64,000 nucleotides of DNA. It comes from an uncultured Spirochaetales bacterium. Lineage in GTDB: Bacteria; Spirochaetota; Spirochaetia; Sphaerochaetales; Sphaerochaetaceae. The notes below the pieces were generated by a model that did not search any database, was not told where the DNA came from, and worked only from the letters and a program-made list of their open reading frames with translations. The stretch spans positions 4,646-68,645 of the forward strand of contig CASDPA010000009.1 of the NCBI GenBank assembly GCA_949282255.1, given 5' to 3'. Made by a program: the position numbers and the translations under genes. Positions 3,415 to 47,032 of the stretch are shown here, in pieces. Position 1 is the stretch's first letter. Each line of letters begins with the position of its first letter.

Positions 3415-4218
3415 ATGGAAAGAAAAGCGAAATTTGCCGGCTTTTGGTATCCTTCGGATATAAAGGATCTGGATGCCATAATCAATCTTGAATCCAACAA
3501 AGATGGTGCAGGGCTCAGGTATGCGGTTTTACCCCATGCCGGGCTTTATTACAGCGGAAGCCTGATCAATGAGTTTTTTTCACGTTTGGATAAAGATGTG
3601 GACCATGTTCTTATTCTTTCTCCTTCTCATTACCATTATCTTACGCCGGGGGTTTTCACCACCTCTTTATTCACATTTTCTGCCACTCCATATGGAAGCG
3701 TAGAAACCAAGCCTTTTGATTTAAAGCCAAATGAGATTAATGATCGGGCCATCAATGATGAGCATGCTGTGGAGATGTTTCTTCCTTTTATAAAAAAACA
3801 TGGCGGCCTTAGTGTTTCTTATGCTCTCATCAGCCATGTCAGAGATTTTGGCGAGATAGATTTTTTGGCAGCAAGGCTTTTTGAATATCTTGATGACAGG
3901 ACAGCAGTAGTAGCTTCAAGCGATTTCACGCATTATGGAAAGCGTTTTTCTTATGAGCCTTATGGCCCATATGCCGTCGGCAAGGTCGTGGAGCAAGACC
4001 TTATATGTGCAGGTCTTCTGGCACAAGGCAGGAGTGAAGAAGCATTTTCCCGTTATCATGAATCAACCATCTGCGGGCTTGTTCCGGCCCTCATTCTTTC
4101 CCGTTTTGCAAGTTTGAAAAAAACTGTTGGTATTGTGGGGCCTCACTGCACAAGCTTGGACAAAGGTGGTAAAGAGGATGATTTTGTATCATATTGCGAT
4201 GTTTTTTGGAGGAAATAA
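3415..4218 (+). CDS. amrB: AmmeMemoRadiSam system protein B (MEMO1 family)
   Basis: 267-aa ORF with MEMO-like motifs (FAGFWYP, LPHAGLYYSG, ILSPSHY, DEHAVEM). It sits directly upstream of the AMMECR1-like and radical SAM partners. Confidence 0.85.
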   Translation: MERKAKFAGFWYPSDIKDLDAIINLESNKDGAGLRYAVLPHAGLYYSGSLINEFFSRLDKDVDHVLILSPSHYHYLTPGVFTTSLFTFSATPYGSVETKPFDLKPNEINDRAINDEHAVEMFLPFIKKHGGLSVSYALISHVRDFGEIDFLAARLFEYLDDRTAVVASSDFTHYGKRFSYEPYGPYAVGKVVEQDLICAGLLAQGRSEEAFSRYHESTICGLVPALILSRFASLKKTVGIVGPHCTSLDKGGKEDDFVSYCDVFWRK

Positions 4219-4220
4219 GC

Positions 4221-4742
4221 ATGGATAGGGATTTACAGGTTGAGCTTCTTGCATTGGCAAGAAAATCAATTGAAAGCTATTTTGATGGAACAGAATTGCT
4301 TTTGCCCGATACCGATCTCTGGCGCGGAGCTTTTGTCACATTGAGAAAGAATGGGGATCTCAGAGGCTGTATCGGTTATCTTGAGCCTGTTGCCCCTCTT
4401 TACAGGCAGATATTCATGCTTGCAAGGGATGCAGCTTTCAATGACATCCGTTTCAATCCCCTGACAAAGGATGAGCTGACATCCTGTAAGATAGAAATCT
4501 CTATACTGACACCTCCTGTTTTTATTCTGAGTCTAGAAGATTTCATTTTGTCAAAGCATGGGATTGTGATGGAAAAAGGAGGAAGGCGGGCAATCTTTCT
4601 TCCTCAGGTTGCTGAGGAGACCGGATGGTCCAAAAGCGAGCTGCTTTCAGCTTTGAGCAGGAAAGCCGGCCTTTTCAGCGATGCTTGGAAAGCTCCTGAT
4701 GCCTCATTTAAGGTATTTGAAGTGGAGTCTTTTGAAGAATGA
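4221..4742 (+). CDS. amrA: AmmeMemoRadiSam system protein A (AMMECR1 domain)
   Basis: AMMECR1 signature GAFVTLRKNGDLRGCIGY. I place the start at ATG 4221 (MDRDLQ...), 3 nt after the amrB stop, rather than at the overlapping ATG 4194. Confidence 0.85.
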   Translation: MDRDLQVELLALARKSIESYFDGTELLLPDTDLWRGAFVTLRKNGDLRGCIGYLEPVAPLYRQIFMLARDAAFNDIRFNPLTKDELTSCKIEISILTPPVFILSLEDFILSKHGIVMEKGGRRAIFLPQVAEETGWSKSELLSALSRKAGLFSDAWKAPDASFKVFEVESFEE

Positions 4743-5653
4743 GATGCGATTTCTGCTATAGGCTGTGCGAAATTCCGGAAGGAGGGATGGGGTTCTGTAA
4801 AAGCCGTATCAATGATTGCGGTACTATTAAGGACCGATGCTATGGAGGGCTGGTCTCCATTGCTGCAGATCCTGTCGAAAAAAAGCCGCTTTACCACTTC
4901 TTGCCAGGATCCTTTACTCTTTCCATAGCCATGCCGGGGTGCAATTTCACTTGTGATTTTTGTCAGAATTATGAGATATCCCAACGCTATTTCATGAAAG
5001 ATGCGGTCGATCCAGATTCCATAGTAGGCTATGCCTCTGCTTATAACTGTCCCTCTATAAGCTACACTTATTCTGAACCTATTGTATGGCAGGATTATAT
5101 GCTTGATGTTGCAAAGCTTGCACGCAAGCGGAATATAAAGAACATAATGGTTACCAATGGCAGCTTTTCCGAGACCTCCATGGAAAGGATCCTGCCGTAT
5201 ATCGATGCATATAATGTGGATCTGAAAGGCGATGAGGAATTTTATAGATGTATTTGCCATTCTTCCTTTTCATCTGTCCTTTCTTCGATAAGGAGAATTT
5301 CGGAATATGGGGCGCATCTGGAAGTTACGACCATGGTGATAGAAGGCATCCATGATGAATCCATGATACGTTATTTGGGCAGCTGCCTATCATCATGCAA
5401 TGTCAAGGTATGGCATCTGTCAAGGTTTTTCCCAATGTATTTGATGAGCGATAGGAGACCGACAAGCGAGAGCTTCTTGAAAAGGATGCTTAAAATTGCC
5501 TTTGAATCCGCAGTCCCTTATGTATACCCTGGAAACAGCGGCCTAGATTCTTTTGTAAGATGTCCCCGCTGCTCCTGCCGCATTGAAAAGCCAAAAGCAG
5601 ACGGGCTATGCCCTTCCTGCGGGGAGAAACTTTACGGAGTGTATCAGATCTAG
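4739..5653 (+). CDS. amrS: AmmeMemoRadiSam system radical SAM enzyme
   Basis: 304-aa ORF with the radical SAM cluster motif CNFTCDFC (CxxxCxxC). It also has an N-terminal Cys cluster (CDFCYRLC...C) and a C-terminal CPRCSC...CPSC ribbon. Its ATG overlaps the amrA stop (ATGA at 4739-4742). Confidence 0.85.
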   Translation: MRCDFCYRLCEIPEGGMGFCKSRINDCGTIKDRCYGGLVSIAADPVEKKPLYHFLPGSFTLSIAMPGCNFTCDFCQNYEISQRYFMKDAVDPDSIVGYASAYNCPSISYTYSEPIVWQDYMLDVAKLARKRNIKNIMVTNGSFSETSMERILPYIDAYNVDLKGDEEFYRCICHSSFSSVLSSIRRISEYGAHLEVTTMVIEGIHDESMIRYLGSCLSSCNVKVWHLSRFFPMYLMSDRRPTSESFLKRMLKIAFESAVPYVYPGNSGLDSFVRCPRCSCRIEKPKADGLCPSCGEKLYGVYQI

Positions 5654-5714: not shown

Positions 5715-6614
5715 GTGGATACGGATAAAAAGCTTCTAAAAGGACATCTTGCGGCAATTTCCACCGTGTTTTTATGGGGTACGACATTCATTTCCACAAA
5801 GGTTCTTCTTAAAGACTTTTCTCCCGCAGCAATCCTTGTCATCCGGTTCATGATAGGTTATCTGGCTCTTTTGGCTTTCAACCATAGGATAATTCCATTG
5901 CAATCCTTAAAAAGGGAGATCGTGTTTGCCTCTGCTGGACTTACCGGAGTGTGCCTTTATTATCTTTTGGAGAATATTGCACTGACCTATACCCAGGCGG
6001 CAAACGTGTCAGTTGTGGTATCGTCCGCACCTCTTTTCACCTTTCTTCTTTCTTATTTCCTTTCAAAAGGCAGAGAGAAGGTCGGACCGTCATTCATTAT
6101 TGGTTTCATCCTTGCTCTTTCAGGTATCGCTTTAATAAGTTTTGCAGGTTCATCGTTTCAGCTGAATCCATTTGGAGATTTTCTTTCCTTGGTTGCTGCA
6201 GCTGTGTGGGCCTTCTATGCCGTATTGACAAAAAAGATTGCCTCATTTGGATTTGATGTTATTCAAACAACCAGACGAGTTTTCTTTTATGGAATCATTT
6301 TTATAATTCCATCTTCATTATTCTTGGGATTTGAAGCAAGTTTATCCTCCTTTTTAGACCCTGTTAATCTCTTGAATTTCCTGTATCTTGGGATCGGTGC
6401 GTCCGCGGCGTGTTTTGCAATTTGGAATTATTCTGTTGCGATTCTTGGACCGGTCAAAACAAGCGTTTACATTTATGCCATCCCTTTGGTCACCGTGGTT
6501 TTTTCGGTGCTTTTGCTTGATGAGAAGATCAATCTGTTATCCGCATCCGGTATGTTTCTTGCGCTCTTGGGATTGTTTTTATCCAATGGTGGTGGCCCAG
6601 AAGAAAAAACATGA
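5715..6614 (+). CDS. DMT superfamily (EamA-type) transporter
   Basis: Ten-helix hydrophobic ORF with two EamA-like halves. The track ORF begins at 5583 inside amrS. I prefer GTG 5715, which lies 4 nt after GGGAGGA. Confidence 0.8.
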   Translation: MDTDKKLLKGHLAAISTVFLWGTTFISTKVLLKDFSPAAILVIRFMIGYLALLAFNHRIIPLQSLKREIVFASAGLTGVCLYYLLENIALTYTQAANVSVVVSSAPLFTFLLSYFLSKGREKVGPSFIIGFILALSGIALISFAGSSFQLNPFGDFLSLVAAAVWAFYAVLTKKIASFGFDVIQTTRRVFFYGIIFIIPSSLFLGFEASLSSFLDPVNLLNFLYLGIGASAACFAIWNYSVAILGPVKTSVYIYAIPLVTVVFSVLLLDEKINLLSASGMFLALLGLFLSNGGGPEEKT

Positions 6615-6699: not shown

Positions 6700-9264
6700 A
6701 TGAAGGTTCTCGTATTGGGTGCTGTTGCTGCGGGTACAAAAGCTGCCGCTAAGATAAAAAGGGAAGACCGATCCATCGATGTCAAGATTCTTACAAAGGA
6801 TGAGGATATCTCATATGCAGGCTGCGGCCTGCCGTATTATGTCGGGGGAATGATCCCCAGCAGGGAAGATCTCATTGTCAACACCCCTGAAAAATATTCT
6901 GCACTTACAGGAGTGGAGGTTGTCACCGGCGCACAGGCTGTCTCAGTAGATACGAAAAACCACGTGGTGGAGTATCTGAAAAACGGAGCATCCTTAAAAG
7001 AGACCTATGACCGCTTGATCATAGCCACCGGTGCATCTGCTTTTGTTCCTGATATCGAGGGCAAGGATTTGGAAGGTGTTTTCAAGGTAAGGACACCTTC
7101 GGATGCTGTCGCACTGAGGAATTACGCAGATCGTGATGATGTCGGATCTGCAGTTGTCGTCGGTGCCGGATTCATCGGACTTGAGATTGCAGAGAACCTT
7201 TTGGCTAAAAAACTGAATGTCACGGTAATAGACTTTGCAAATCAGATCATGCCCAACGCATTTGACTACGAGATGGCTGAATGGGTCAGAAAGAAGATCG
7301 TCGCGCGCGGAATCAAGGTTCTGGTCTCAACAGGAATCAAGGCTATAAGAGGAAAGGATAAGGTCGAGGCCGTTGAAACCTCGTCTTCAGTTCTCAAGGC
7401 CGATCTGGTTGTTCTTGCGATAGGCGTGAGACCGAATACCTCCTTCCTTGAAAAAAGCGGCATCGAGATGTCAAAGGGAGCCATCCTTGTCGACGATTTT
7501 ATGAGGACCAATATAGAAGGAATTTATGCTGCAGGAGACTGTGCTCTTGTGAGAAACAGATTCACCGGAGAGAGGATGTATTCAGCCATGGGTTCCACTG
7601 CAAACATATCGGCCAGGGTATTGGCAAAAAACATCGTTGGTAAGAATGCCTCTTATCAAGGGGCTTATGGCACCGGTGTTGTCAAGGTGCTGGATAATCT
7701 GAATGCAGGGCGTACCGGTCTTACAGAAGCACAAGCTGTTTCTTTTGGACATGAACCGGTGAGTGTTGTGGCGGTCACGGATGACAAGGCACATTATTAT
7801 GCAGGAGCATCATTTTTTGTCACAAAGCTTGTTGCGGATAAAAAGACAAAGAAACTGCTTGGAATCCAGGTCGCAGGTTCCGGCGCTGTCGATAAAATGG
7901 TGGATATAGCCGTCACAGGGCTGGCCACGGGAATGAGAATCGATGATTTCGATACGCTGGATTTTGCGTATGCACCGCCTTTCTCAACGGCTATCCATCC
8001 ATTTGTTCAGGCCTGCAATATTCTTGAAAATAAGATTTCAGGAGAATTTGAGACCATAACACCATATGAATATCTGAAAAATGGCGCAAAAGGGTATCAT
8101 GTAATAGATGCGCTGCCGGAAAAGACCATAGCGGGTGCCAAATGGGTAGACTTGACCAAGGTTGTTGATTCCATTCCCGGAATTGCAAAGGACGAGAAGC
8201 TTCTTTTGGTTTGTGCGAAAGGTAAAAGAGGATATTTTCTGCAAAATAGGCTGAAGGCTGCCGGATATACCGAAACAAGGGTATTGGAGGGAGGATTGAC
8301 CGTTAACGATGTTAAAATCGATTTTGGCTCCCTGATCCCGGAATCCGAAGTCAAACGGGTCAAGGGGCTTGGGTGTCTTCAGGATAAGAGGAATCCGGAT
8401 CATTTCAATGTCAGGGTCATCACTGTCAATGGAAAGATATCCAGCGAGCAGCATAAGGTCATAGCCGAGGCTGCGGAACGGTTTGGCTCTGGAGAGATCA
8501 CAATGACCACCAGGTTGACTTTGGAGATACAGGGAGTACCTTTTTCCAATATCGAGCCATTGCGTGAATTCATAGCAAAAGCGGGGTTGCAGACTGGTGG
8601 AACCGGATCGAAGGTACGCCCGGTTGTATCCTGCAAGGGAACGACCTGTCAGTATGGCTTGATAGATACCTTCGCCTTGTCTGAAAAGATCCATAGGATA
8701 TTTTATGAAGGATGGCATGATGTTTCTCTTCCTCATAAGTTCAAGATTGCAGTCGGCGGATGTCCTAATAATTGTGTCAAGCCGGATTTGAACGATCTTG
8801 GTATAGTCGGGCAGCGCGTAATCCTTTTCAACTTGAACAAATGCAAGGGATGCAAGGTGTGTCATGTCGTAAACTCCTGTCCGGTAAAGGTTGCTTCTGT
8901 CAAGGATGGAAGGCTGCGGATTGAAGCCGATGGTTGCAACCATTGCGGACGTTGCGCCTCCATCTGTCCTTTCGGGGTTACCAGCGACTGGACAATGGGT
9001 TATAAGATATTCATCGGTGGAAGGTGGGGTAAGCGTGTGGCTATGGGAAAGCCCCTTTCAAAGCTTATGACTTCGGATGAGGAAGTCATCGATATCATCG
9101 AGAAAGCCATCCTGTTGTTCCGCGATGAAGGAAAGACAGGTGAAAGGTTTGCCGATACCGTTGAGCGCCTTGGGTTTGAATATGTTGAGAAGAAACTTTT
9201 CAGCACAAATCTGGATAAGGAAAAGATATTGAAGAAGGAGGTTGTGGGCGGAGCAACCTGTTGA
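6700..9264 (+). CDS. fusion protein: CoA-disulfide reductase/NADH-oxidase-like flavoprotein + rhodanese + siroheme sulfite-reductase-like (AsrC/Dsr-type) module with ferredoxin insert
   Basis: 854 aa. The N-terminal part has GAVAAG, SYAGCGLPYY and VVVGAGFIGLE. The middle part has the rhodanese loop CAKGKRG. The C-terminal part has SCKGTTCQYG and GGCPNNC (C-x5-C ... C-x3-C) plus CKGCKVC...CP and CNHCGRCASICP. Confidence 0.85.
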   Translation: MKVLVLGAVAAGTKAAAKIKREDRSIDVKILTKDEDISYAGCGLPYYVGGMIPSREDLIVNTPEKYSALTGVEVVTGAQAVSVDTKNHVVEYLKNGASLKETYDRLIIATGASAFVPDIEGKDLEGVFKVRTPSDAVALRNYADRDDVGSAVVVGAGFIGLEIAENLLAKKLNVTVIDFANQIMPNAFDYEMAEWVRKKIVARGIKVLVSTGIKAIRGKDKVEAVETSSSVLKADLVVLAIGVRPNTSFLEKSGIEMSKGAILVDDFMRTNIEGIYAAGDCALVRNRFTGERMYSAMGSTANISARVLAKNIVGKNASYQGAYGTGVVKVLDNLNAGRTGLTEAQAVSFGHEPVSVVAVTDDKAHYYAGASFFVTKLVADKKTKKLLGIQVAGSGAVDKMVDIAVTGLATGMRIDDFDTLDFAYAPPFSTAIHPFVQACNILENKISGEFETITPYEYLKNGAKGYHVIDALPEKTIAGAKWVDLTKVVDSIPGIAKDEKLLLVCAKGKRGYFLQNRLKAAGYTETRVLEGGLTVNDVKIDFGSLIPESEVKRVKGLGCLQDKRNPDHFNVRVITVNGKISSEQHKVIAEAAERFGSGEITMTTRLTLEIQGVPFSNIEPLREFIAKAGLQTGGTGSKVRPVVSCKGTTCQYGLIDTFALSEKIHRIFYEGWHDVSLPHKFKIAVGGCPNNCVKPDLNDLGIVGQRVILFNLNKCKGCKVCHVVNSCPVKVASVKDGRLRIEADGCNHCGRCASICPFGVTSDWTMGYKIFIGGRWGKRVAMGKPLSKLMTSDEEVIDIIEKAILLFRDEGKTGERFADTVERLGFEYVEKKLFSTNLDKEKILKKEVVGGATC

Positions 9265-9288
9265 TAGGTTGTATGTGCTTGCACAAGT

Positions 9289-9323
9289 ACCGTTTTTTCT
9301 GGAATTTTTTCAGAAAAAACGGT
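9289..9323. terminator. perfect 13-bp stem-loop (possible terminator or RNA stability element)
   Basis: ACCGTTTTTTCTG / CAGAAAAAACGGT around a 9-nt loop, 25 nt after the stop of the fusion gene. No T-tract follows the stem on either strand, so this is atypical for an intrinsic terminator. Confidence 0.45.
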
Positions 9324-9414
9324 ATCATCGTAATCGGATTTGCCAGACTGCATGATCAGGAAAGGGCCTTGAAATAATCCTTGAATTGTTTTGTTTAATT
9401 TCCTGGAGACGATC

Positions 9415-10332
9415 ATGCCGAAACGTTGTATTGCCGTTCTTTTTATCGTTTTGTTTTCATTTGTTCCTTTGTTTTCTACATCTTTTCTTGATTCTGAAGG
9501 CAGGCTTGTCGATGTAAAAAGCATTGAAAATACAGCATGCCTGAATTCATCGCTTGCCGATTTGTGGCACCTTGCCGGGGGAAATGTATCAATAACAATC
9601 AAGGATGCCATCGAAAAGGGGTATGCCCCTCAAGATGCTTTTCTTGTGGATAACGGTGCGGGAATACACATTGATGAGGAAATGCTCATTTATAACAAGC
9701 CTGATTTCGTGCTTGCGTCCCCGGATACGCCGAGTCATGTCAAAGCGGTAGAAAAACTTGAACGTCTTAATATTCCTGCAGCATTGATCAGATTGGAAAG
9801 TTTTGGGGATTTCTATCATTATTTTTCCATTTTGACGGATTTGACAGGTCGAAAAGATCTTTTTGAGATTCATGGAGAGGGACAGAAGGTCCGGATAGAA
9901 GAAATTATTTCAAAAGCGCAAAAGGTTGAAGAGAAACCTTCTGTACTCTTCGTACGATGCGGAAGCGGTTTTTCTTCCACGCGCGCAAAGACCAAGGATG
10001 AGCATTTTGCTGCAAAAATCCTTGCAGATCTTGGTGCCCATAATATCGCAGAGGATGTTCCTGTGCTTTCCGAGAGTCTTGCTTTGGAATCCGTTCTTGT
10101 TTGCGATCCGGATCTCATTCTCATCGTCCCTCAAGGCAATGAGGAGGCGAGTATTGCCTACATGGGAAGTTTGTTGGATAAACCGGGCTGGCGGAATCTG
10201 AAGGCGGTTGAGGAGGATAAGGTGTTTTTCCTTCCCAAAGACTTGTTTCATTACAAGCCTAATGGAAGATGGGCCGAGTCTTACTTTTTTTTGGCTTCGA
10301 TCCTTTATCCGGGAGTTTTTGATGAGAAATAA
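9415..10332 (+). CDS. ABC transporter substrate-binding protein, iron-siderophore/cobalamin (FecB/BtuF) class
   Basis: PBP type-8-like ORF upstream of a FecCD permease. The start is placed at ATG 9415 (GGAG 7 nt upstream) rather than TTG 9391. A signal peptide is present. Confidence 0.8.
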   Translation: MPKRCIAVLFIVLFSFVPLFSTSFLDSEGRLVDVKSIENTACLNSSLADLWHLAGGNVSITIKDAIEKGYAPQDAFLVDNGAGIHIDEEMLIYNKPDFVLASPDTPSHVKAVEKLERLNIPAALIRLESFGDFYHYFSILTDLTGRKDLFEIHGEGQKVRIEEIISKAQKVEEKPSVLFVRCGSGFSSTRAKTKDEHFAAKILADLGAHNIAEDVPVLSESLALESVLVCDPDLILIVPQGNEEASIAYMGSLLDKPGWRNLKAVEEDKVFFLPKDLFHYKPNGRWAESYFFLASILYPGVFDEK

Positions 10333-11296
10333 AGCTCCGATTGCATTTTCTTGTGCATTTGCACTATTGTTCATTGTATTTGTTGCTGCAATCGGTTTTG
10401 GCAGCTCAGGTGTTTCTTTCTCCTCTTTTTTTTCAAAGGATGAGACTGCATTGGTAATTTTTTATGCATTGCGGCTTCCCCGTGTTCTTGGAGCCTTCTT
10501 TGCAGGAATCGCATTCTCTGTATCCGGAGTCCTGATCCAGAGTGCGACAGCAAACGATCTGGCATCTCCGAATGTTGTAGGAATCAATGCCGGAGCAGGC
10601 TTTTTTGTTTTGCTGTTTCTTTCTTTTTTTCCTTTTGCTTATGCTTATCTTGCCCTCGCATCTTTTCTCGGAGCCTTGTGCGCTGTCCTGATAGTGGTTT
10701 TCATTTCATCGTTGGTAAGAAGTTTCGATGTGAAGAGCACCCTCATACTATCAGGTGTTGCCGTTGGCGCGTTGTTCAACGCTGGTATTTCTGTCATTTC
10801 CTCCTTGGATCCGGATGTCCTTTCAACATACAGCGCTTTTTCCATAGGTGGGTTTTCGGGCCTGTATTTGGAAAACCTGTATGTTCCATCCTGTTTCATT
10901 ATTGCCTCCTTCATCGCTTCCTTGTTTCTTGCAGGAAAGCTGAATTACCTTTCCCTTGGGGATGAGATCGCATCCTCAATAGGCATAAGGGTAAGATTGC
11001 TCAGGCGTTCAGCCTTGTTGGTCGGAGCTCTTAGTGCCGCATCTGCAGTAACATTTTCTGGCTTGCTTGGCTTCGTGGGGCTGGTGGTTCCTCATATGGC
11101 ACGTTATATCATCGGTGATGATCTGAGAATGAAATTGCCGTTTTCCGCCTTGCTTGGGGCTATCCTTGTTATTTTGGCCGATCTGCTGGGCCGTATTGTG
11201 ATAAGGCCGTCCGAGCTTCCAGCAGGAATATTCATGGCCGTCATTGGTGTTCCTTTTTTCTTATTTTTGCTGCTTAAAAGGAGGATGTATGGTTGA
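10322..11296 (+). CDS. FecCD/BtuC-family ABC permease
   Basis: About 9-10 TM helices with typical FecCD motifs (LRLPRVL, NDLASPN..G.NAGA, GFVGLVVPH). ATG 10322 overlaps the upstream stop by 11 nt. Confidence 0.9.
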   Translation: MRNKAPIAFSCAFALLFIVFVAAIGFGSSGVSFSSFFSKDETALVIFYALRLPRVLGAFFAGIAFSVSGVLIQSATANDLASPNVVGINAGAGFFVLLFLSFFPFAYAYLALASFLGALCAVLIVVFISSLVRSFDVKSTLILSGVAVGALFNAGISVISSLDPDVLSTYSAFSIGGFSGLYLENLYVPSCFIIASFIASLFLAGKLNYLSLGDEIASSIGIRVRLLRRSALLVGALSAASAVTFSGLLGFVGLVVPHMARYIIGDDLRMKLPFSALLGAILVILADLLGRIVIRPSELPAGIFMAVIGVPFFLFLLLKRRMYG

Positions 11297-12035
11297 AGTG
11301 GAAGGTCTCGGCCTTGAAACAGGTCGGAAAAGAATACTCAATGATGTTTCTTTTACTCTCCAAGATGGGGAGATCGTTGTGCTTTTGGGCAGCAATGGAA
11401 GCGGCAAAACCAGTTTGATCCGATGCCTCAGCTCGTATTACAACGGCTATTCAGGCTGCATAAAATACGGTGGAAAAGATTTAAAAGAATATCCGATGGA
11501 GAAAAGGGCGTCACTGCATTCGCTTCTTCCCCAAATTGTTCCCTCCGTGGATATGAGTTTGATGCAGCTTCTTTTTTATGCGGCTGAATCTTCGGGGCTG
11601 AACAAAAAAAAGGCAAAAAAAAGAATAGAGGAAGTGCTTATGCTCTCTGGGATGGAAAGTTTTTCCAACACTTTAGTATCAAGGATGTCCGGAGGCGAAC
11701 GTCAGCTTGCATTTCTTTCCTTCATGGCTGTCAGGGACAGTAAAGCATATTATCTTGATGAGCCGGAGGCATCCTTGGATGCAAAATTCAAGAAAAGGGC
11801 AAAAAACATCATCGAGAAGATAAAACAGGAAGATCGCATAGTGCTCTTATCGATGCATGACATGAACAGGGCGCTTATGATTGCCGATAGGATTCTTGTC
11901 TTAAATGAAGGCCGTCTTGCATTCAATGGCAGCCCTTCAGCATTTCTTGACGGCAATCTGGGGGAAAAGTATTTTTCTCTTGAACTGAGAAGGTTGCAGG
12001 ATGAAAACGGAAACAGGATTCAGCTTTATCTTTGA
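11289..12035 (+). CDS. ABC transporter ATP-binding protein (FecE/BtuD type)
   Basis: Walker A GSNGSGKTS, signature MSGGERQ, Walker B YYLDEPEASLD. ATG 11289 overlaps the permease stop. Confidence 0.9.
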   Translation: MVEVEGLGLETGRKRILNDVSFTLQDGEIVVLLGSNGSGKTSLIRCLSSYYNGYSGCIKYGGKDLKEYPMEKRASLHSLLPQIVPSVDMSLMQLLFYAAESSGLNKKKAKKRIEEVLMLSGMESFSNTLVSRMSGGERQLAFLSFMAVRDSKAYYLDEPEASLDAKFKKRAKNIIEKIKQEDRIVLLSMHDMNRALMIADRILVLNEGRLAFNGSPSAFLDGNLGEKYFSLELRRLQDENGNRIQLYL

Positions 12036-21753: not shown

Positions 21754-22850
21754 ATGTTGTTTGGAAATTTATCATCCATTGCGGAGATCGAACCTCGGGA
21801 ATCACGGTCTATTTCCGCAGAGAACCCGACGGGGGAGAAGGGCGGTGGAGGGCGTGCGTCGAGCATCCTGGGCCCGGGGCGCAAAGGAAAGGCTTATCTG
21901 GATCTGGAGGATGGCAAGGAGACCGTGCTGGCCGATATCCAAGGGCCGGGGGTGATAAACCACATCTGGATAACAGTGCAGGACAGTACGTCGAAAGGTG
22001 AGTTCGTACTCCGCGATCTGGTGCTGAGGATGTACTGGGACGGATCCCCAATTCCTTCGGTCGAGGTCCCCCTGGGGGATTTCTTCTGTTGCGGATTTTC
22101 CGCAAAATGCCAGGTCTCGTCCCTTCCGATAGCCGTCGCCCCTTACGGCGGATTCAACTGTTTCTTTCCCATGCCGTTCAAAAAACATGCGAGGATAACC
22201 GTTGAAAACCAGCATGGCTGCCTTATTCATGCGTTCTTTTTTACCATCAATTACTGCCTTGTCGAAGCCTTAGGCGAAAAGACCGGGTACTTCCACGCCC
22301 AGTGGCGCAGGACGAAGTATTCTTCCATAGGATGCGACCATGTCATCCTGGACGGGGTCGAGGGGGCCGGACAATATGTCGGAACATATCTGGCCTGGAC
22401 CGCTCTCGAACGTTACTGGTGGGGGGAAGGCGAGATAAAGTTCTATATCGACGGGGATGGAGAATACCCGACGATCTGCGGTACGGGCGTCGAGGATTAT
22501 GTCGGCGGAGCCTGGGGGTTTTTTGAAAAGGACCAGTACGGTGTGGTATCCAGACAGGAAACCACATACTGTCTTCCGTTCATGGGGTATCCATATCATA
22601 GCTGCGTGAGCGGCACGGTGCCTATATACGGCTATGATGCCGTTCCCGCCACGGCCTTTACAGGTGGCATATCCCCGATCCAATCTATTTCAGCAAAGAT
22701 ATCAGGGTGGAGATACAACAGATAGGCCATAACGGGGATCATCTTTTCGAAAGGGCGGACGACGTGGCCAGCGTGGCATATTGGTATCATCTGGGGGTGA
22801 ATGGGAACATGCCTGTCTTCCCAAAAAGAAAAGACCGGTTGCCCAGATGA
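21754..22850 (+). pseudogene. DUF2961 / GH172-family glycoside hydrolase, interrupted by a 1-nt frameshift near 22657-22659
   Basis: The track ORF 21754..22725 aligns along its length with the downstream paralog up to ...PATAF. The paralog-like C-terminus (YRWHIPDPIYFSKDIRVEIQQIG...VAYWY...RLPR, stop 22848-22850) continues in the +2 frame. Restoring one T in the run at 22657-22659 gives AFYRWH, matching the paralog's RAFYRWH. Confidence 0.8.
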
Positions 22851-22874
22851 CCGGACAGGTAAGGAGAATAGTAT

Positions 22875-23966
22875 ATGTTTGACAGCGGTTTGTATAAAAG
22901 GAACAAGATATATTCATATGCCATCAATGCGGAGAACCCTACCGGCGGAAGGGGCTGCGGAGGTCGTTCGGCATCCCCGCTCGGTGTCGCCCGCAAAGGT
23001 AGTCCCTGCTTCAGGAACGTAAGGCCTGGTGAGGTTGTGACATTGGCGGATATCAAAGGAACGGGAAAAATAACCCACATATGGGCGACGGTTGACGACC
23101 GCACATCGGACAGCGAGCGCTTCGTCTTGCGCGATCTTGTCCTTAGGATGTATTGGGACGGCGAGGCGTATCCGTCTGTCGAAGTACCGTTGGGGGATTT
23201 CTTTTGCAACGGATTCGGCGAGACCTACCTTGTCGAATCGATTCCTGTGTCGGTAGTTCCGTCCAGGGGATTCAACTGCTTTTTCCCGATGCCGTTCGGA
23301 AAAAGCGCCCTCATAACGCTGGAGAACCAGCACGCGGAGGATATTCCCGCTTTTTTCTATCAGATAGATTACACGCTGGGCGATGATGTCGACGAGGACA
23401 CCTTCTATTTCCATGCCAGGTGGAGGAGGGAGAACCCGACCATGTTGAAAAAAGACTACACTGTCTTGGATGATGTCAGGGGGGAAGGGGCCTATATCGG
23501 TACTTTTATTGCGATGTCGACTCTTTCAAGATATTGGTACGGCGAAGGGGAGATGAAATTCTATCTCGACGGCGATTCGGATTTTCCTACGATCTGCGGT
23601 ACCGGTATGGAGGATTATTTCGGAGGATCCTGGAGCTTTGCGAAACAGGATGGGGGAAAAACCGTCGAAAGAACCTTCAACTCGCCGTTCCTCGGCTACC
23701 CGTTTTACAGCAGGCACGATGAGAACCTGCACAACAACTATCACAATGACGACTGCCCGCCCATGCGCGCGTTCTATAGATGGCACCTCATGGATCCCGT
23801 GTATTTCAAAAAGGATATCAGGGTCACGCTGCAGCAGATAGGGGTCTGCCATAAAGGGCTTTTCGAAAGGCAGGACGATTTGTCTTCGGTTGCCTATTGG
23901 TATCAGAGCGAGCCTCATGTGGCTTTCCCCGCGCTTGTTCCGGTTGAGGAGCGCTGGCCTCGTTAG
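22875..23966 (+). CDS. DUF2961 / GH172-family glycoside hydrolase
   Basis: 363-aa intact paralog of the preceding gene. Shared blocks include AENPTG, THIW, VLRDLVLRMYWDG, VEVPLGDFFC, GFNCFFPMPF, ICGTG.EDY and YRWH. The RBS context GTAAGGAGA is the same as for the upstream copy. Confidence 0.88.
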   Translation: MFDSGLYKRNKIYSYAINAENPTGGRGCGGRSASPLGVARKGSPCFRNVRPGEVVTLADIKGTGKITHIWATVDDRTSDSERFVLRDLVLRMYWDGEAYPSVEVPLGDFFCNGFGETYLVESIPVSVVPSRGFNCFFPMPFGKSALITLENQHAEDIPAFFYQIDYTLGDDVDEDTFYFHARWRRENPTMLKKDYTVLDDVRGEGAYIGTFIAMSTLSRYWYGEGEMKFYLDGDSDFPTICGTGMEDYFGGSWSFAKQDGGKTVERTFNSPFLGYPFYSRHDENLHNNYHNDDCPPMRAFYRWHLMDPVYFKKDIRVTLQQIGVCHKGLFERQDDLSSVAYWYQSEPHVAFPALVPVEERWPR

Positions 23967-24116: not shown

Positions 24117-25136
24117 ATGAATGACGTCAAATTAAAGGATATAGCGGAGGAATCGGGGTTTTCGGTTTCCACCGTTTCCAGGATCCTTTCAGGGGATAGG
24201 TCGAGAAAGATGAAGGAGCAGACGATCCGCTGTGTGCTGGATACCGCAAAGCGTTTGGGTTATTACGAGGAAAAGAGAACCAGACTCTATAAGGCGGATG
24301 CGGCACTTAATATCGGGTGTCTTTTTGTATCGGATCATGAGAGTATTTTGTCCCCGTTTTTTTCCGAGGTTCTTTCCGGAATCAAGGAGGAGATTTCTCA
24401 GCTTTCGCAGTTCAGAAATATAACATTCGATCTGCTTCTTTGCGAAGATGATGATTTTTCCAGCAGAATCGAAAGCAAAAGTCTGGATGCCGCGGTCATT
24501 TTAGGACGTTCACGGTCTTCGACTTTGGAGCTGATCCGTACCAACATAGCAAATCTGATCTATGCGGGACTGAATCCCGTGGGGGGAATGGACGAGGTTC
24601 TTTGTGATGCGCGCGATGGGATGGCAGACGCCGTACGATATCTCAATGGGCTCGGACATACTAGGATCGCATTCATCGGACCTACGCCAAAACAGTCGGA
24701 TGTGCATAACGAATTCAGATATATCGGCTATCAGGAAGGCTTGGCGCTATGCGGACTTGAATTCGATGATAGGCTTGTGGAGGATGTCTATCTCTCGATC
24801 CAGGATGGCTATGAAGGAGCTTCTTCCCTTTTTTCCCGAATCAAACCCACAGCCGTACTGGCAGCCAACGATAACACCGCTCTTGGCGTGCTGAGCTACC
24901 TAAAGGATAAGGGTATCCTGGTCCCGGACGAGGTTTCCGTCGTAGGTTTCGACAATATAGAGGTCTCATCATTTTTCAAGCCGTCTCTCAGCACCTATGA
25001 TGTTCCGAAGAAAGAGCTGGGAAGATTTGCCGTCAAATTCCTTATAGACAGGATCGACAACCCAAGAAACTGTGATATCAGGATCAATGTTCCTTATAGA
25101 TTTATAAAAAGAGATTCTTCAGGGAGGATTTTATGA
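24117..25136 (+). CDS. LacI-family transcriptional regulator
   Basis: N-terminal HTH VKLKDIAEESGFSVSTVSRILSG plus a PBP1 sugar-binding domain. The stop overlaps the next ATG (ATGA). Confidence 0.9.
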   Translation: MNDVKLKDIAEESGFSVSTVSRILSGDRSRKMKEQTIRCVLDTAKRLGYYEEKRTRLYKADAALNIGCLFVSDHESILSPFFSEVLSGIKEEISQLSQFRNITFDLLLCEDDDFSSRIESKSLDAAVILGRSRSSTLELIRTNIANLIYAGLNPVGGMDEVLCDARDGMADAVRYLNGLGHTRIAFIGPTPKQSDVHNEFRYIGYQEGLALCGLEFDDRLVEDVYLSIQDGYEGASSLFSRIKPTAVLAANDNTALGVLSYLKDKGILVPDEVSVVGFDNIEVSSFFKPSLSTYDVPKKELGRFAVKFLIDRIDNPRNCDIRINVPYRFIKRDSSGRIL

Positions 25137-26287
25137 AGAATGTTCTATTCATGCATGGAGGAGGTCCGACAGCGGTATTGAACGCCAGTCTTGCCGGAGC
25201 CTTGAAAGCGCTTAGGGAAAGCAGCTTTAAGGGACAGACCCTTTTTGCCCGATTCGGTACGGGCGGACTTTTAAAAAAGGATGTGGGCATTATTCCAAAG
25301 CTCGATGATGAAGGCTTAGCTGTTCTTTCCCGTACTCCTGGATCCGCAATCGGAAGCGGTCGCGACCATTTGGAGGCGGATGATTACCTCTTACTTGCTG
25401 AAAATCTTTGTAATCTCGATGTCGGATACGTTGTGATCGGTGGTGGAAATGGCACAATGGATACCGCAAAAAAGCTTTCAAAAGCATGCCTTGGCAAAAA
25501 CATACGTGTGGTAGGGGTTCCTAAGACCATGGACAACGACCTTTCCGTGACCGACCACAGCCCAGGCTTTCTTTCGGCGGCCAGGTATCTTTCCGCTTCC
25601 GTTTCGGAGGTGCTGATGGATGTACGCGGACTTCCGATACATATGGTGGTCATAGAAGCTTTCGGCCGTAATGCCGGATGGATCACAGCTTCATCGTCTT
25701 TGGCCGAGGTATGCGGATACGGAGCTCCAGACATGCTTCTTTTGCCGGAGGTGCCTTTTGATGAGGAGGCATTTCTTTCCCGGGTTGAAGAGCTGCATAG
25801 GCAGAAGGGCTGTGGTGTCATAGTTGCCAGCGAGGGGCTGAGATATAAGGATGGAAATCCTATAGTCGAGCCTGTGTTCAAGGTCGGTAGAAGTGTGTAT
25901 TTCGGCGATGTTTCTTCCCATCTGTCACTCTTGATAACCAGAAAACTGGGGATAAAGAGCAGAAGTGAAAAACCGGGAATATTCGGAAGGTCCTCAATCG
26001 CATGGCAGAGCGGACTGGACCGTGAGGAAGCGTTTGAATGCGGCCGCGTTTCGATGCAGGCCGCATTGGAGGGGAATACAGGTGTGATGAGCATCATCAG
26101 GCGCACTTCAAACGGCCCGTATTCCTCCGAGATAGCGATAAGCGAAATCGTCGATGAGATATTGTGCGAGCGCTGCCTGCCGGAAGATATGATCGACAGG
26201 GAGAGGTTTCAGGTTACCGACAAATTCTTTTCATATAGCAAACCGTTGATGGAGAAGGATGACATAAGATATCTATCGTTTGTTTGA
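25133..26287 (+). CDS. PfkA-family phosphofructokinase-like sugar-phosphate kinase (atypical motifs)
   Basis: 384 aa. PFK blocks are present: HGGGPTAVLNA, VVIGGGNGTMDTA, VPKTMDNDL, IEAFGRNAGW and VASEG. Confidence 0.85.
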   Translation: MKNVLFMHGGGPTAVLNASLAGALKALRESSFKGQTLFARFGTGGLLKKDVGIIPKLDDEGLAVLSRTPGSAIGSGRDHLEADDYLLLAENLCNLDVGYVVIGGGNGTMDTAKKLSKACLGKNIRVVGVPKTMDNDLSVTDHSPGFLSAARYLSASVSEVLMDVRGLPIHMVVIEAFGRNAGWITASSSLAEVCGYGAPDMLLLPEVPFDEEAFLSRVEELHRQKGCGVIVASEGLRYKDGNPIVEPVFKVGRSVYFGDVSSHLSLLITRKLGIKSRSEKPGIFGRSSIAWQSGLDREEAFECGRVSMQAALEGNTGVMSIIRRTSNGPYSSEIAISEIVDEILCERCLPEDMIDRERFQVTDKFFSYSKPLMEKDDIRYLSFV

Positions 26288-26302
26288 GGTAAGGAGGTTT
26301 TG

Positions 26303-27118
26303 ATGGATATTAAATACTTTAAAAAGGAAGGGTGCGAACTTTTGGAAGGCAGGATTCCTGTAAAGCTTTTAGGAGATAGCGGTGAGGTCTTTTACGAGAT
26401 CGCACTTGAAATGGTAGCCGCGATCGAGGAAAACAATAAAAGGGGAGAGAAAACGGTTTTTATACTTCCTGTCGGTCCTGTGGGTCAGTATCCGATATTC
26501 GTCCGTCTTGTTAATGAAAAAAGAATCAGTCTCAGAAATTGCTGGTTCATAAACATGGATGAATATCTGACCGACGAAAAAAAATATATAGATAAGGACG
26601 ATCCTCTTTCTTTCCGAGGATTCATGGAGAGGAACGTTTATTCGAAAATCGATGCTGAATTGGTCAATCCTTCTTCCCAGAGAATATTTCCGGATCCGGA
26701 AGATCCTGAGAATATCGCCCGCATTGTCTCAAATCTTGGAAAGATAGATATCGCTTTTGGAGGCATAGGGATAAACGGACACCTGGCCTTCAATGAGGCG
26801 GAAGAGGTTTCCGCCGAGGAATTTTCATCCCGTACGACCAGGGTCCTTAAGATAAGCAGGGAGACCAGGGCTGTAAATTCGATCGGTGATTTGAACGGCG
26901 CCATAGATGCGATGCCTGTTTATGCTGTCACGATCGGAATGGATATGATATTGAAGGCAAAAAAGGTCAGGCTCGGAATATTCCGCCCATGGCATCGCGC
27001 AGTCCTTCGTCAGGCCATATTCTCCGAGATGGGAGGCCATTTCCCGGTAACCCTTCTTCAAAATCATCCTGATGCCTTGATCTATGTCAACAATATCGCA
27101 GCAGGGAGGCCGTTCTGA
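26303..27118 (+). CDS. glucosamine/galactosamine-6-phosphate deaminase-isomerase family protein (NagB/AgaI-like)
   Basis: Motifs MDEYL and GGIGINGHLAFNE. ATG 26303 lies 5 nt after AAGGAGG. Confidence 0.85.
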   Translation: MDIKYFKKEGCELLEGRIPVKLLGDSGEVFYEIALEMVAAIEENNKRGEKTVFILPVGPVGQYPIFVRLVNEKRISLRNCWFINMDEYLTDEKKYIDKDDPLSFRGFMERNVYSKIDAELVNPSSQRIFPDPEDPENIARIVSNLGKIDIAFGGIGINGHLAFNEAEEVSAEEFSSRTTRVLKISRETRAVNSIGDLNGAIDAMPVYAVTIGMDMILKAKKVRLGIFRPWHRAVLRQAIFSEMGGHFPVTLLQNHPDALIYVNNIAAGRPF

Positions 27119-28248
27119 TGGAGATAAAAGGAAGAATTCTTGCTCATGGGACAATCAAAAACAGGATACTCGGAACCGATGGTGGAATAATCTCATTCAT
27201 CAAGGATTATGATGGAAAAGAGAAGCTACCTCTTATTATCCCTGGATTTTTCGATGTGCACACCCATGGCGGAAATATGATAGATGTGAACCATATAACG
27301 GATATCAGTCAGGTTGACGAGCTTTCGGCATTCTTCGCATCCAAGGGTGTGACATCCTTTCTTCTTTCCGTAATGACCGATGAAATCGATAGGATGGAGG
27401 AGGTTGTTCTCATCCTTAGAAAAGCCATGGAAAAGGGGCTTCCCGGCGCAGCTCTCCGTGGTATTCATCTGGAAGGTCCGTTCCTTGCTCCCGAATACAA
27501 GGGGGCTATGCCGGAGTCCCTGCTTAGGGCGGGGGATCCTGCTTTGTTCGACCATTTCCAGTCCATATCGGGGAACAATATCCGATATATCACGGTCGCT
27601 CCCGAGCTGGATGGTATGATCGATATGATAAGGCATATCAGGAAAAACGGTGTGTGTCGTGTGAGCATGGGACATAGTGCGGCCGAATACGAGAAAGCGA
27701 TGGAGGCGGTTGAAGCCGGGGTCGTCTCCAGCACCCATACCTTCAATGCGATGAAGCTTTTCCATATGCATCGCCCTGCGATATCTGGAGCGGCTCTTGA
27801 AAGCGGGGATGTCTATTGTGAGACGATCGCCGATGGCTTCCATCTTCATCCTGCAACTGTGCGCCTTATATTGAAAACAAAAGGTTATGATAGGGTTGTG
27901 GCCATAACAGATTCCATTATGGCCGCCGGATTACCAGATGGGAAGTACAAGCTTGGCGTCAATGATGTCATTGTGAAGGATGGCGATGCGAAGCTTCCTG
28001 ATGGAGTGAGGGCCGGTAGTACTCTCACCATGGATAAGGTGCTCAGGAACCTTTTAAGGTTCACAGGAGAAGATGTTTCAAAGCTTTCCCGTCTTGTAAG
28101 TGCCAATGCCGCACGGATGCTCGGTTTTGAGGATACTGGTACTCTTGAGGTTGGAAAAAGAGCTGATTTCATTTTGCTTTCTTCTGAAAACGAAGTTGAA
28201 GAAACCTATGTATGTGGTAAAAAAGTCTATGAGAAAGGAGGTGTTTGA
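27118..28248 (+). CDS. N-acetylhexosamine-6-phosphate deacetylase (NagA/AgaA-like amidohydrolase)
   Basis: GFFDVHTHGG, IHLEGPFL, MGHS, THTFNAM and ITDS blocks typical of NagA. The start overlaps the upstream stop (TGATG). Confidence 0.88.
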   Translation: MEIKGRILAHGTIKNRILGTDGGIISFIKDYDGKEKLPLIIPGFFDVHTHGGNMIDVNHITDISQVDELSAFFASKGVTSFLLSVMTDEIDRMEEVVLILRKAMEKGLPGAALRGIHLEGPFLAPEYKGAMPESLLRAGDPALFDHFQSISGNNIRYITVAPELDGMIDMIRHIRKNGVCRVSMGHSAAEYEKAMEAVEAGVVSSTHTFNAMKLFHMHRPAISGAALESGDVYCETIADGFHLHPATVRLILKTKGYDRVVAITDSIMAAGLPDGKYKLGVNDVIVKDGDAKLPDGVRAGSTLTMDKVLRNLLRFTGEDVSKLSRLVSANAARMLGFEDTGTLEVGKRADFILLSSENEVEETYVCGKKVYEKGGV

Positions 28249-29402
28249 TGCTTGTTCCGCTTAAGCCGATTCTCGACGCGACGGAAAAGTACAACTATGC
28301 ACAGGGTGCGTTCAATGTCAATGCGGTAAGCCAGGCCGAGGCTGTTATAAAAATTCACGAGATATTCCGTTCTCCTGCTATTTTACAGGGAGCGGATCTT
28401 GCAAACGGATTCATGGGTGGCTGCAAGGATTTCATGCATGCCACCATAGAGGATAAGAGAAAGGGTGCGATGAACATCGCTTCTGCTGTAAAAAAATTTG
28501 CGGTGGAATCCCCGATCCCTGTCGCTCTTCATCTCGATCACGGAAGGGATTTTGAATCCGTGAAAGCCGCGATAGATGGTGGATACACATCCGTGATGAT
28601 CGATGGCTCGGCCCTGCCTTTCAAGGAAAATGTCGAACTTACCAGGGAAGTCGTCAAATACGCGCATCAAAGAGGTGTCAGCGTTGAAGGGGAGCTCGGG
28701 GTGCTGGCAGGTGTGGAGGATCACGTATTCAGCTCAAGCAGCACATATACGAATCCTTTGGATGCCATAGAGTTTTTCAAAAGCACCAAGGTTGACGCCC
28801 TCGCAATAAGTTACGGTACGAAGCACGGAGCCTCAAAAGGTGGCAATGCCAAGCTGAGAAAGGAGATTGCAATCGCCATAAAGGAGCTGATGAACTTTGA
28901 AGGTATCGAAGGGGCGCTCGTCTCCCATGGTTCTTCCACTGTGCCAAAGTATATAGTAGATGAGATAAACAGGTTGGGTGGAGATATCAAGAATGCCAAC
29001 GGAATTCCTTTGGAGCAGCTTGTGGAGGTTTCAAAGCTGGGAATCAGGAAGATAAATGTCGACACGGACATACGTCTTGCAGTTACAAGAAACATCCGGG
29101 AATATTTTATCAATGATCCTTCAGCCTGCATGAATGCGGATATCAACGGAATCTGGGAAATAATGAAGACCCATCCGGAGGCGTTCGATCCTCGGGTGTA
29201 TCTTACACCGATCATGGACAGTCTTATGTACGGCACAATAAAAAATGATGGTGAGCGTAGGATCAACGATTTGATTAAGACAGGTGTTATGGAAGCCGTT
29301 GGAACATTGGTCGTTGAATTTTCCCAGGTGGGTAAGGCTCCGCTTGTGGAAATTAGAACTCTTGATGAAATGGCTGAATATTATAGGAGCAGGGGAATAT
29401 GA
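28248..29402 (+). CDS. class II ketose-bisphosphate aldolase family protein (FBA/tagatose-bisphosphate aldolase-like, long form)
   Basis: Class II aldolase blocks: ALHLDHG..., SVMIDGS, VEGELG and HG(A/S)S. At about 384 aa it is roughly 100 aa longer than GatY/KbaY-type enzymes. Confidence 0.85.
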   Translation: MLVPLKPILDATEKYNYAQGAFNVNAVSQAEAVIKIHEIFRSPAILQGADLANGFMGGCKDFMHATIEDKRKGAMNIASAVKKFAVESPIPVALHLDHGRDFESVKAAIDGGYTSVMIDGSALPFKENVELTREVVKYAHQRGVSVEGELGVLAGVEDHVFSSSSTYTNPLDAIEFFKSTKVDALAISYGTKHGASKGGNAKLRKEIAIAIKELMNFEGIEGALVSHGSSTVPKYIVDEINRLGGDIKNANGIPLEQLVEVSKLGIRKINVDTDIRLAVTRNIREYFINDPSACMNADINGIWEIMKTHPEAFDPRVYLTPIMDSLMYGTIKNDGERRINDLIKTGVMEAVGTLVVEFSQVGKAPLVEIRTLDEMAEYYRSRGI

Positions 29403-33435: not shown

Positions 33436-33453
33436 TACAAAAGGAGTATTCAT

Positions 33454-46893: not shown

Positions 46894-47032
46894 TTGTATC
46901 AACTTTAGCACCACCCAATCTCAAGTTGAGCACCACTTAGGTAAAATCATTCAATCTCAACATCAGCACCACCTTAGAATCATGGCATCAGCTGCTTTGT
47001 CAGTAGCTGAAATCAATTCTAAGGAGGCCGAC

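Follow-up and report, generated by a model that had tools for sequence, protein, structure and literature searches.

An 854-residue gut-spirochaete fusion of persulfide reductase, rhodanese and siroheme sulfite reductase modules with an invariant cysteine tail

Modules and cysteine tail of the fusion protein

The window analyzed here is a 64,000-nt stretch of contig CASDPA010000009.1 from an uncultured Spirochaetales bacterium, and our subject is a single open reading frame on its plus strand (6700..9264, stop codon included), which starts with ATG and comprises 854 codons. Judged by homology, the encoded gut-spirochaete protein unites in one chain of 854 residues a persulfide reductase that depends on NADH, a rhodanese and a sulfite reductase of the siroheme type, and the chain ends in an invariant cysteine tail; we refer to this arrangement of a CoA-disulfide reductase-like flavoprotein (CoADR), a rhodanese (RHD) and a sulfite reductase (SiR) as the CoADR-RHD-SiR fusion. 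A sequence-only reading of the window had already proposed the three modules, and every Pfam domain that it predicted, including NIR_SIR, was recovered above the gathering score: Pyr_redox_2 (residues 1-287, E 2e-62), Pyr_redox (151-228), Pyr_redox_dim (333-432, E 1e-13), Rhodanese (468-534, 25.2 bits against a cut-off of 22.2), NIR_SIR_ferr (562-626, E 7e-15), NIR_SIR (636-836, E 2e-28) and a set of Fer4 dicluster matches (Fer4_10, Fer4_7, Fer4_6 and Fer4_2; 709-760). The motifs quoted in that reading are all present in the translation (GAVAAG, SYAGCGLPYY, VVVGAGFIGLE, CAKGKRG, SCKGTTCQYG, GGCPNNC, CKGCKVC...CP and CNHCGRCASICP), and alignments to solved enzymes show intact catalytic residues in all three modules.

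An assembly chimera can be rejected because the identical 854-aa protein is encoded in the same gene context on several independent contigs, and because full-length homologues are many: the top of the homology search consists of proteins of 852-856 aa with 64-97% identity, and hundreds share the architecture. All conservation counts given below refer to 135 full-length homologues, 42-97% identical to the window protein and aligned to it. The AlphaFold2 (AF2) model of the protein has well-folded domains (mean pLDDT 84.4, pTM 0.65). The linker between the rhodanese and the siroheme module is short, at about 10 residues.

The N-terminal part is a single-cysteine FAD/NADH flavoprotein of the CoADR/Npsr/CoAPR type (residues 1-445; 6700..8034, plus strand), as indicated by Pfam, structure matches, Foldseek and conservation, and is followed by the rhodanese domain (residues 446-545; 8035..8334). 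Residues 1-545 match PDB entries 6pfz, 8a56 and 3nta with E-values of 1e-70 to 1e-95, the closest solved relatives being the NADH-dependent persulfide reductase (Npsr) of Archaeoglobus fulgidus (6pfz, E 1e-94) and the CoA-persulfide reductase (CoAPR) of Enterococcus faecalis (8a56), next to the CoADR-RHD of Bacillus anthracis (3icr) and the Shewanella Npsr (3nta). Foldseek comparison of the AF2 model with the Npsr and CoAPR structures (8a56, 6pfz) extends over about 540 columns including the rhodanese, with target-normalized TM scores of 0.91-0.94 and an rmsd of 2.2-2.7 A. Besides the FAD motif G7-G12, the flavoprotein contains Cys42 (codon 6823-6825, in SYAGCGLPYY), which lies in the single redox-cysteine motif S-[FY]-A-x-C-G-L-P-Y, aligns to the redox cysteine of 6pfz and 8a56, and is found in 135/135 homologues. 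The predicted NADH-binding Rossmann segment spans G155 to D178 (7162-7233); residue 178, at the end of the second Rossmann strand, is acidic (Asp or Glu) in every homologue, which by the general rule for such folds points to NADH rather than NADPH.

In the rhodanese the active-site loop reads C505-A-K-G-K-R510-G, with the Cys505 codon at 8212-8214; Cys505 is invariant, Arg510 is conserved in 134/135, and Cys505 aligns to C519 of the A. fulgidus Npsr and C508 of the E. faecalis CoAPR. The window protein thus shares with the characterized enzymes (3nta, 6pfz, 8a56, 3icr) the fold of residues 1-545, the positions of both cysteines and the HYY and YAPP motifs of the Npsr/CoAPR family; it differs from them in some 310 further residues of siroheme/Fe-S reductase and in a rhodanese loop that is unusually basic (C-A-[K/R]-G-K-R). 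Because the protein stays below the curated NCBIfam cut-offs for CoA-disulfide reductase equivalogs (NF007123, 380 vs 458 bits; TIGR03385, 373 vs 579; NF010037, 246 vs 394), we file residues 1-545 as Npsr/CoAPR-like and not as a CoA-disulfide reductase equivalog. By family membership, a NAD(P)H-dependent persulfide/polysulfide reductase activity is predicted, probably with a tightly bound CoA.

Residues 546-831 (8335..9192, plus strand) form a siroheme-[4Fe-4S] sulfite reductase module whose nearest relative is the C-terminal half of the F420-dependent sulfite reductase (Fsr). It matches PDB 7np8 with E 2e-35 as a single sequence and E 3e-50 as a profile of 13 sequences, far ahead of DsrA/B, plant nitrite reductases and the Escherichia coli SiRHP. 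In the profile alignment to residues 346-611 of the Methanocaldococcus jannaschii Fsr (7np8), R355, R388, R423, K460 and K462 correspond to R572, R605, R640, K680 and K682 of the window protein, each of them conserved in 135/135. Sulfite is liganded in Fsr by Arg355, Arg423, Lys460 and Lys462, whereas Arg388 is the hallmark of the assimilatory type (aSir), standing in place of a threonine in DsrA (Fsr structural paper). The four ligands of the siroheme-coupled [4Fe-4S] cluster (C645, C650, C688 and C692; 8632..8775) align on the Fsr ligands with a one-residue gap: the first motif, SCKGTTCQYG, had been read as C-x5-C, which is the Fsr spacing (CX5C...CX3C), but is in fact C645-x4-C650, and the HMMER alignment places the gap here; the second is C688-x3-C692. 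The inserted ferredoxin (residues 709-760; 8824..8979), which carries two [4Fe-4S] sites according to the Fer4 matches and the Fsr alignment, contributes C715, C718, C721 and C727 together with C746, C749, C752 and C756, all eight of them invariant. All 12 cluster cysteines are therefore present, 11 of them in 135/135 homologues and C645 in 134/135.

These features agree with the published definition of the group IIId Dsr-LP (PMC3448663), namely the fold, four Arg/Lys residues of the anion site, the cysteines of the coupled cluster and two four-cysteine ferredoxin motifs. The module had been labeled AsrC/DsrAB-like, and here the label has to be changed to Fsr-C/group IIId Dsr-LP, as the AsrC and DsrA/B models reach only 86-98 bits against 324-393 (TIGR02912 for AsrC, 97.5 vs 324; TIGR02064 and TIGR02066 for DsrA and DsrB, 86-88 vs 341-393). 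The NirB model TIGR02374 is likewise not reached (239 vs 578 bits), and the Pfam scan gave no Fer2_BFD match. Fsr-type siroheme centers reduce sulfite to sulfide with electrons that arrive through the inserted ferredoxin (Fsr structural paper); by homology, siroheme binding and the same reaction are predicted for residues 546-831.

The comparison with whole systems shows where the fusion stands. With Fsr (M. jannaschii and Methanothermococcus thermolithotrophicus; 7np8, 7npa) and the free-standing group IIId Dsr-LP it has in common one copy of the sulfite/nitrite reductase repeat with an inserted 2x[4Fe-4S] ferredoxin, and with Fsr also the five anion-site residues, the cluster ligands and an N-terminally fused flavoprotein. 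The window protein is nevertheless not Fsr proper: the alignment covers Fsr only from about residue 346 onward, the FrhB/FpoF-type F420H2 oxidase half was not found, and where Fsr, a protein of methanogens, has an FrhB-type F420H2 oxidase with clusters of its own as partner, this bacterial protein has the NADH/FAD/Cys CoADR-rhodanese, the shorter C-x4-C spacing and an additional tail of 23 residues that ends in cysteine. NirB, the large subunit of NADH-nitrite reductase, resembles the fusion in joining a Pyr_redox_2-family NADH flavoprotein to a NIR_SIR siroheme module in one chain, which is reflected in partial NCBIfam matches, but has a BFD-type [2Fe-2S] linker and lacks the redox cysteine, the rhodanese, the ferredoxin insert and the cysteine tail. 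AsrC of the AsrABC system likewise belongs to the group III Dsr-LP and contains a ferredoxin insert, occurs in similar anaerobes and is paired with rhodaneses in thiosulfate reduction; unlike the fusion, it obtains its electrons from the separate subunits AsrA and AsrB, and neither of these is linked to the fusion gene.

Alignment of the profile with Fsr reaches no further than about residue 831, leaving 23 residues (832-854; 9193..9261, plus strand) that extend beyond the Fsr fold and end in V-V-G-G-A-T-C-COOH. Residues 845-854 are coil in the AF2 model, and the final block 851-854 has a mean pLDDT of 48. The C-terminal cysteine had been suspected of taking part in the reaction, and conservation strongly backs this suspicion: G850, G851 and C854 are each present in 135/135 homologues, with a terminus GG-A-[T/S]-C-COOH, and in a separate motif scan 134/134 fusions end in GGATC or GGASC. 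Free-standing SiR modules carry the tail in 13 cases out of 125, the other 112 stopping about 20 residues earlier; the tail is thus universal where the module is fused to a cysteine-based partner (the CoADR-RHD or the C_GCAxxG_C_C domain described below) and rare otherwise. We infer that it may act as a flexible sulfur-carrier arm. Flexible glycine-rich, cysteine-bearing C-terminal peptides of analogous kind are the DsrC arm of DsrAB, the GGCGG arm of SoxY and the tails of MerA and thioredoxin reductase. The likeness lies in the idea of a swinging cysteine peptide for sulfur or reducing equivalents and not in sequence, since there is no homology, and the tail of the window protein belongs to the reductase's own chain and bears only one cysteine, at its very end.

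Distribution, related architectures and gene neighborhood

The architecture is common in gut anaerobes. With one genome taken per species, we found at least 80 loci in which residues 1-854, or nearly all of them, are covered, and these species genomes belong to gut Clostridia and Spirochaetales. A larger set of 597 matching stretches was not taken as a count of fusions, because the search used two peptides and one of them, SCKGTTCQ, is shared by free-standing modules. Among the matches listed, the hosts are gut Spirochaetales metagenome-assembled genomes (MAGs), Lachnospiraceae, Oscillospiraceae, Clostridium leptum DSM 753, Schaedlerella arabinosiphila, Dorea, Blautia and Pseudoflavonifractor, the closest relatives being gut Spirochaetales MAGs with 65-69% identity. 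Spirochaete and clostridial copies share 62-69% identity, which may point to horizontal transfer.

In the databases the proteins are named only "FAD-dependent oxidoreductase" or "uncharacterized NAD(FAD)-dependent dehydrogenase". Full-text literature searching found no paper that describes the CoADR-RHD-SiR architecture, in agreement with the earlier statement that no characterized enzyme of this kind was known; one selenium review that contains all four query terms proved unrelated to the fusion. Each module of the protein belongs to a known kind; the novelty lies in how they are combined, in the invariant cysteine tail and in the linked importer described below.

Clustering at 50% gave only about three full-length clusters. 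A second fusion clade (P0131 and relatives, 866-891 aa) shares 58% identity with the window protein in the SiR part but only 35% in the flavoprotein, and the rhodanese escapes detection by BLAST. The flavoprotein of this clade is nearer to ordinary free-standing CoADR-RHD proteins (50-55% identity), so that the SiR-plus-tail module has either been joined to a CoADR-RHD at least twice, or had its N-terminal half swapped. A two-gene form is encoded at locus L093, where a 544-aa CoADR-RHD with both cysteines is followed after 23 nt by a 315-aa SiR-plus-tail gene. Three forms of the pairing of CoADR-RHD and SiR-plus-tail have therefore arisen or persisted, one in the window clade, one in the P0131 clade and one as the two genes of L093.

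L093 is the sole real two-gene form. An apparent split at L097, with a CoADR of 443 aa and an RHD-SiR of 403 aa, was rejected, because at 5970-6000 an in-frame TAA replaces the GAA (Glu) of the fusions; this interruption is a nonsense mutation or a sequencing error and not a natural split. Similarly, the 484-aa "RHD-SiR" P0465 was rejected as a fragment, starting in the middle of the dimerization domain at the end of a 2.5-kb contig.

The SiR-plus-tail module also occurs in other company. On 21 contigs it is fused to an N-terminal, cysteine-rich C_GCAxxG_C_C domain annotated as "putative redox-active" (P0136/P0440), and elsewhere it stands alone without any flavoprotein; since the module exists in these forms, it can evidently use an external electron donor. 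P0136, found on L087-L089 at 7001-8356 and 451 aa in length, is an uncharacterized second architecture which may report on the role of the cysteine tail. A short tail-less SiR module (P0458) lies in an unrelated gene context.

In the window, the fusion gene is preceded by a gene for an EamA-type transporter and followed, after a spacer of 150 nt, by a type II ABC importer on the same strand (9415..12035; Pfam, NCBIfam and gene calls), which consists of a Peripla_BP_2 binding protein (9415-10332), a FecCD permease (10322-11296) and an ATPase (11289-12035). The spacer contains a perfect 18-bp hairpin (9287..9325, plus strand; RNAfold dG -23.2 kcal/mol), which was not called by the consensus terminator scan, has no T-run after it and no match in Rfam, and is not a canonical terminator. 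In the surroundings of the fusion gene, neither a riboswitch nor any other Rfam RNA was detected, and the consensus scans for promoters and terminators gave no more hits than expected by chance.

To what extent these neighbors recur was counted over 83 loci, 41 of which have at least 4 kb on both flanks. The importer is adjacent in 28/83 and a divergent LysR gene in 29/83, and one or the other is present in 27 of the 41 loci with long flanks. In the second fusion clade the order is a divergent LysR, then binding protein, permease, ATPase and fusion, with a 5-nt gap before the fusion gene. A free-standing SiR-plus-tail gene (L092) lies in the order SiR, binding protein, permease, ATPase and CysG, the last being siroheme synthase, and the free-standing tail-less SiR gene P0137 has the binding-protein gene after it. 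The importer is thus found in two fusion clades with differing gene orders and beside free-standing SiR genes (window, L084, L090 and L092). A CobA/HemD fusion and Rrf2-NifS-NifU recur as well, in 6 and 5 loci respectively, and no ferredoxin, AsrA or AsrB gene was conserved among the recurrent neighbors of the fusion loci.

The importer proteins are weakly haem- or iron-chelate-like (35 bits for IsdE; 140 bits against a cut-off of 261 for the haem ATPase), and candidate ligands are an iron chelate, a tetrapyrrole or even an oxyanion. This context, with LysR, CobA/HemD or CysG, and Rrf2-NifS-NifU, fits a sulfur-regulated enzyme which brings its own cofactor supply, and we read the locus as a putative horizontally mobile module with its own regulator.

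Possible routes of electrons and sulfur

We favor, with about even confidence, the view that the fusion is a cytoplasmic, NADH-linked reductase of sulfite, thiosulfate and persulfide to sulfide that works through a cysteine sulfur relay, and that hydrogen sulfide is probably formed by it from sulfite or thiosulfate along a route which has been overlooked. The protein would be a dimer, by homology with both parent families. In residues 1-545, NADH, FAD, Cys42 and a probably bound CoA would reduce sulfane sulfur held as a persulfide on Cys505, whereas the Fsr-C-type siroheme-[4Fe-4S] center of residues 546-831 would reduce sulfite to sulfide with single electrons passed through the two [4Fe-4S] clusters of the inserted ferredoxin. 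The Gly-Gly-Ala-Thr-Cys-COOH tail may serve as a swinging arm, moving sulfur between the siroheme pocket and the line formed by Cys505, CoA and Cys42. If the rhodanese splits thiosulfate into the Cys505 persulfide and sulfite, it would thereby supply substrates for both flanking modules, so that thiosulfate, sulfite or persulfide together with NADH would yield H2S. NADH would drive at least the sulfane-sulfur step, and reduced ferredoxin may add electrons, depending on the geometry.

In support of this scheme, the residues it employs (C42, C505, R572, R605, R640, K680, K682, G850, G851, C854 and the 12 cluster cysteines) are invariant or nearly so across the 135 homologues. Npsr and CoAPR are experimentally established persulfide reductases that use NAD(P)H, the rhodanese cysteine, a swinging CoA arm and the equivalent of Cys42 (PMC9405070, PMC7969121), and thiosulfate is cleaved by rhodaneses to sulfane sulfur and sulfite, which feeds the sulfite reductase of Clostridia and makes rhodanese plus sulfite reductase a precedent there for a route from thiosulfate to sulfide (PMC5497025). 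Several points weigh against it. An Fsr/aSir-type site, with Arg605 where DsrA has threonine, is thought to complete the six-electron reduction without releasing an intermediate, so that the siroheme may not need a cysteine acceptor at all. A strict link between tail and flavoprotein is contradicted by 13 free-standing SiR genes that carry the tail, among them that of L092, which has no CoADR-RHD within 6 kb. The AF2 model has a pTM of only 0.65, and the rhodanese domains of Npsr and CoAPR are not known to have thiosulfate sulfurtransferase activity.

The simplest alternative, which we consider possible though not probable, is a plain electron wire after the logic of Fsr and NirB. Electrons would pass from NADH through FAD, the "additional" and the peripheral [4Fe-4S] clusters to the coupled cluster and siroheme, which would take sulfite through the complete six-electron reduction; no part in this would fall to Cys42, Cys505 and Cys854, which would instead serve a separate persulfide reductase activity or a regulatory purpose. 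An SiR module of the same group IIId type is fused to a flavoprotein in Fsr, with the second cluster proposed as conduit between the domains (PMC3448663); NirB, PadH and AorC are cases in which Fe-S chains take their electrons from Pyr_redox_2-family flavoproteins (matches in NCBIfam and PDB); and both the intact NADH site and the want of conserved ferredoxin, AsrA or AsrB genes nearby would suit such a wire. It is harder to reconcile with the FAD of characterized CoADR and Npsr enzymes, which gives a hydride equivalent to the Cys42 position and not to a metal center, with the invariance of C42, C505 and C854 across two clades whose flavoproteins are only 35% identical, and with SiR-plus-tail modules that have a non-flavin cysteine-rich partner or stand alone, so that a fused electron donor is not required. 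Fsr is the only sulfite reductase so far known to be fused to its electron donor (Fsr structural preprint); the window protein could be another, and would then be unprecedented among bacteria and in its use of NADH. Alternatively, it could be the earliest known case of a siroheme reductase whose cysteine carrier arm is covalently attached and coupled to a persulfide reductase, and in either case the protein offers a compact single-gene system in which siroheme and thiol/persulfide chemistry are joined.

Rather more doubtful is a built-in division of labor of the DsrC kind, in which ferredoxin would give the siroheme four electrons, sulfur at the S(0) level would be placed on Cys854 as a persulfide and passed by way of Cys505 and CoA to H2S, and NADH, FAD and Cys42 would supply the last two electrons. 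The tail, which every fusion has and most free-standing modules lack, would have its closest analogies in the arms of DsrAB-DsrC and of SoxY (GGCGG); the other fused partner is again a cysteine-rich "putative redox-active" domain, and CoADR-RHD enzymes are known only as persulfide/polysulfide reductases. The aSir/Fsr-type site, with Arg605 and its DsrA/aSir-type cluster motif, nevertheless predicts full reduction without release of an intermediate, the tail has one cysteine where DsrC uses two, and no ferredoxin gene is linked. Equally tentative is the bolder version of a hybrid six-electron machine, in which partial reduction at the siroheme, or handover of its product, would leave a persulfide on Cys854 that swings to the rhodanese, CoA and Cys42, with NADH providing the last two electrons. 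If this were true, one polypeptide would reproduce the job done in dissimilatory sulfite reducers by DsrAB, DsrC and DsrMK(JOP), the co-transferred ABC importer would supply iron or tetrapyrrole for its cofactors, and gut Clostridia and spirochaetes would possess a widespread and unrecognized H2S-forming pathway.

That the two halves are merely independent, a persulfide reductase and a ferredoxin-dependent sulfite reductase fused for co-expression or co-localization with no transfer within the molecule, appears unlikely. Both halves do occur free-standing at 50-60% identity, and the pTM of the model suggests that the packing between domains is not confidently fixed; but the association recurs in three forms, the linker between rhodanese and SiR is short, and the tail is present strictly in every fusion. 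Least credible of all is the idea that nitrite, hydroxylamine, selenite or some other anion takes the place of sulfite at the siroheme. Siroheme reductases including Fsr reduce nitrite too, and the NirB family of NCBIfam is among the partial matches; however, the Arg/Arg/Lys/Lys set is the one by which group I Fsr reduces sulfite, the protein lacks the substituted set of group II Fsr, for which nitrite is now the assigned substrate, both fused partners handle sulfur, and the neighbors are LysR and genes of Fe-S and siroheme biogenesis instead of nitrogen metabolism. From the same active-site residues and genomic context, we rated functions with selenite or nitrite, and a reverse (oxidative) function, as unlikely.

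Formation of H2S in the gut is usually credited to Dsr (Desulfovibrio and Bilophila), AsrABC and cysteine desulfhydrases. The fusion adds an apparently unstudied candidate sulfite/thiosulfate reductase in at least 80 species-representative genomes, and surveys of sulfur genes would miss it because it is annotated only as an "FAD-dependent oxidoreductase." Several hosts are in culture (S. arabinosiphila DSM 106076, C. leptum DSM 753 and Pseudoflavonifractor phocaeensis), so that a direct test is within reach.

Other features of the window

Just upstream of the EamA transporter gene lies a complete AmmeMemoRadiSam trio (Memo-like, AMMECR1 and radical SAM; 3415-5653, plus strand). Further downstream, an ABC transporter at 31868-34440 (plus strand) has a binding protein of the NMT1/THI5 type, a family to which sulfonate, taurine and nitrate binding proteins belong, and could be another uptake system for a sulfur source in the same genome. 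A second flavin-Fe-S oxidoreductase is encoded at 39231-40454 on the minus strand, a 408-aa protein with Fer4_20 and Pyr_redox_2 domains of the NfnB/GltD/SudA (sulfide dehydrogenase) type. An open reading frame with a Mu-transposase C-terminal domain (46982-48592, plus strand) hints at a mobile element in the window. Two tandem DUF2961 genes stand beside a sugar ABC transporter (21754-23966, plus strand) and are followed at 24117-31701 by a cluster of LacI, PfkB-like, aldolase, TIM and LarA-N genes.

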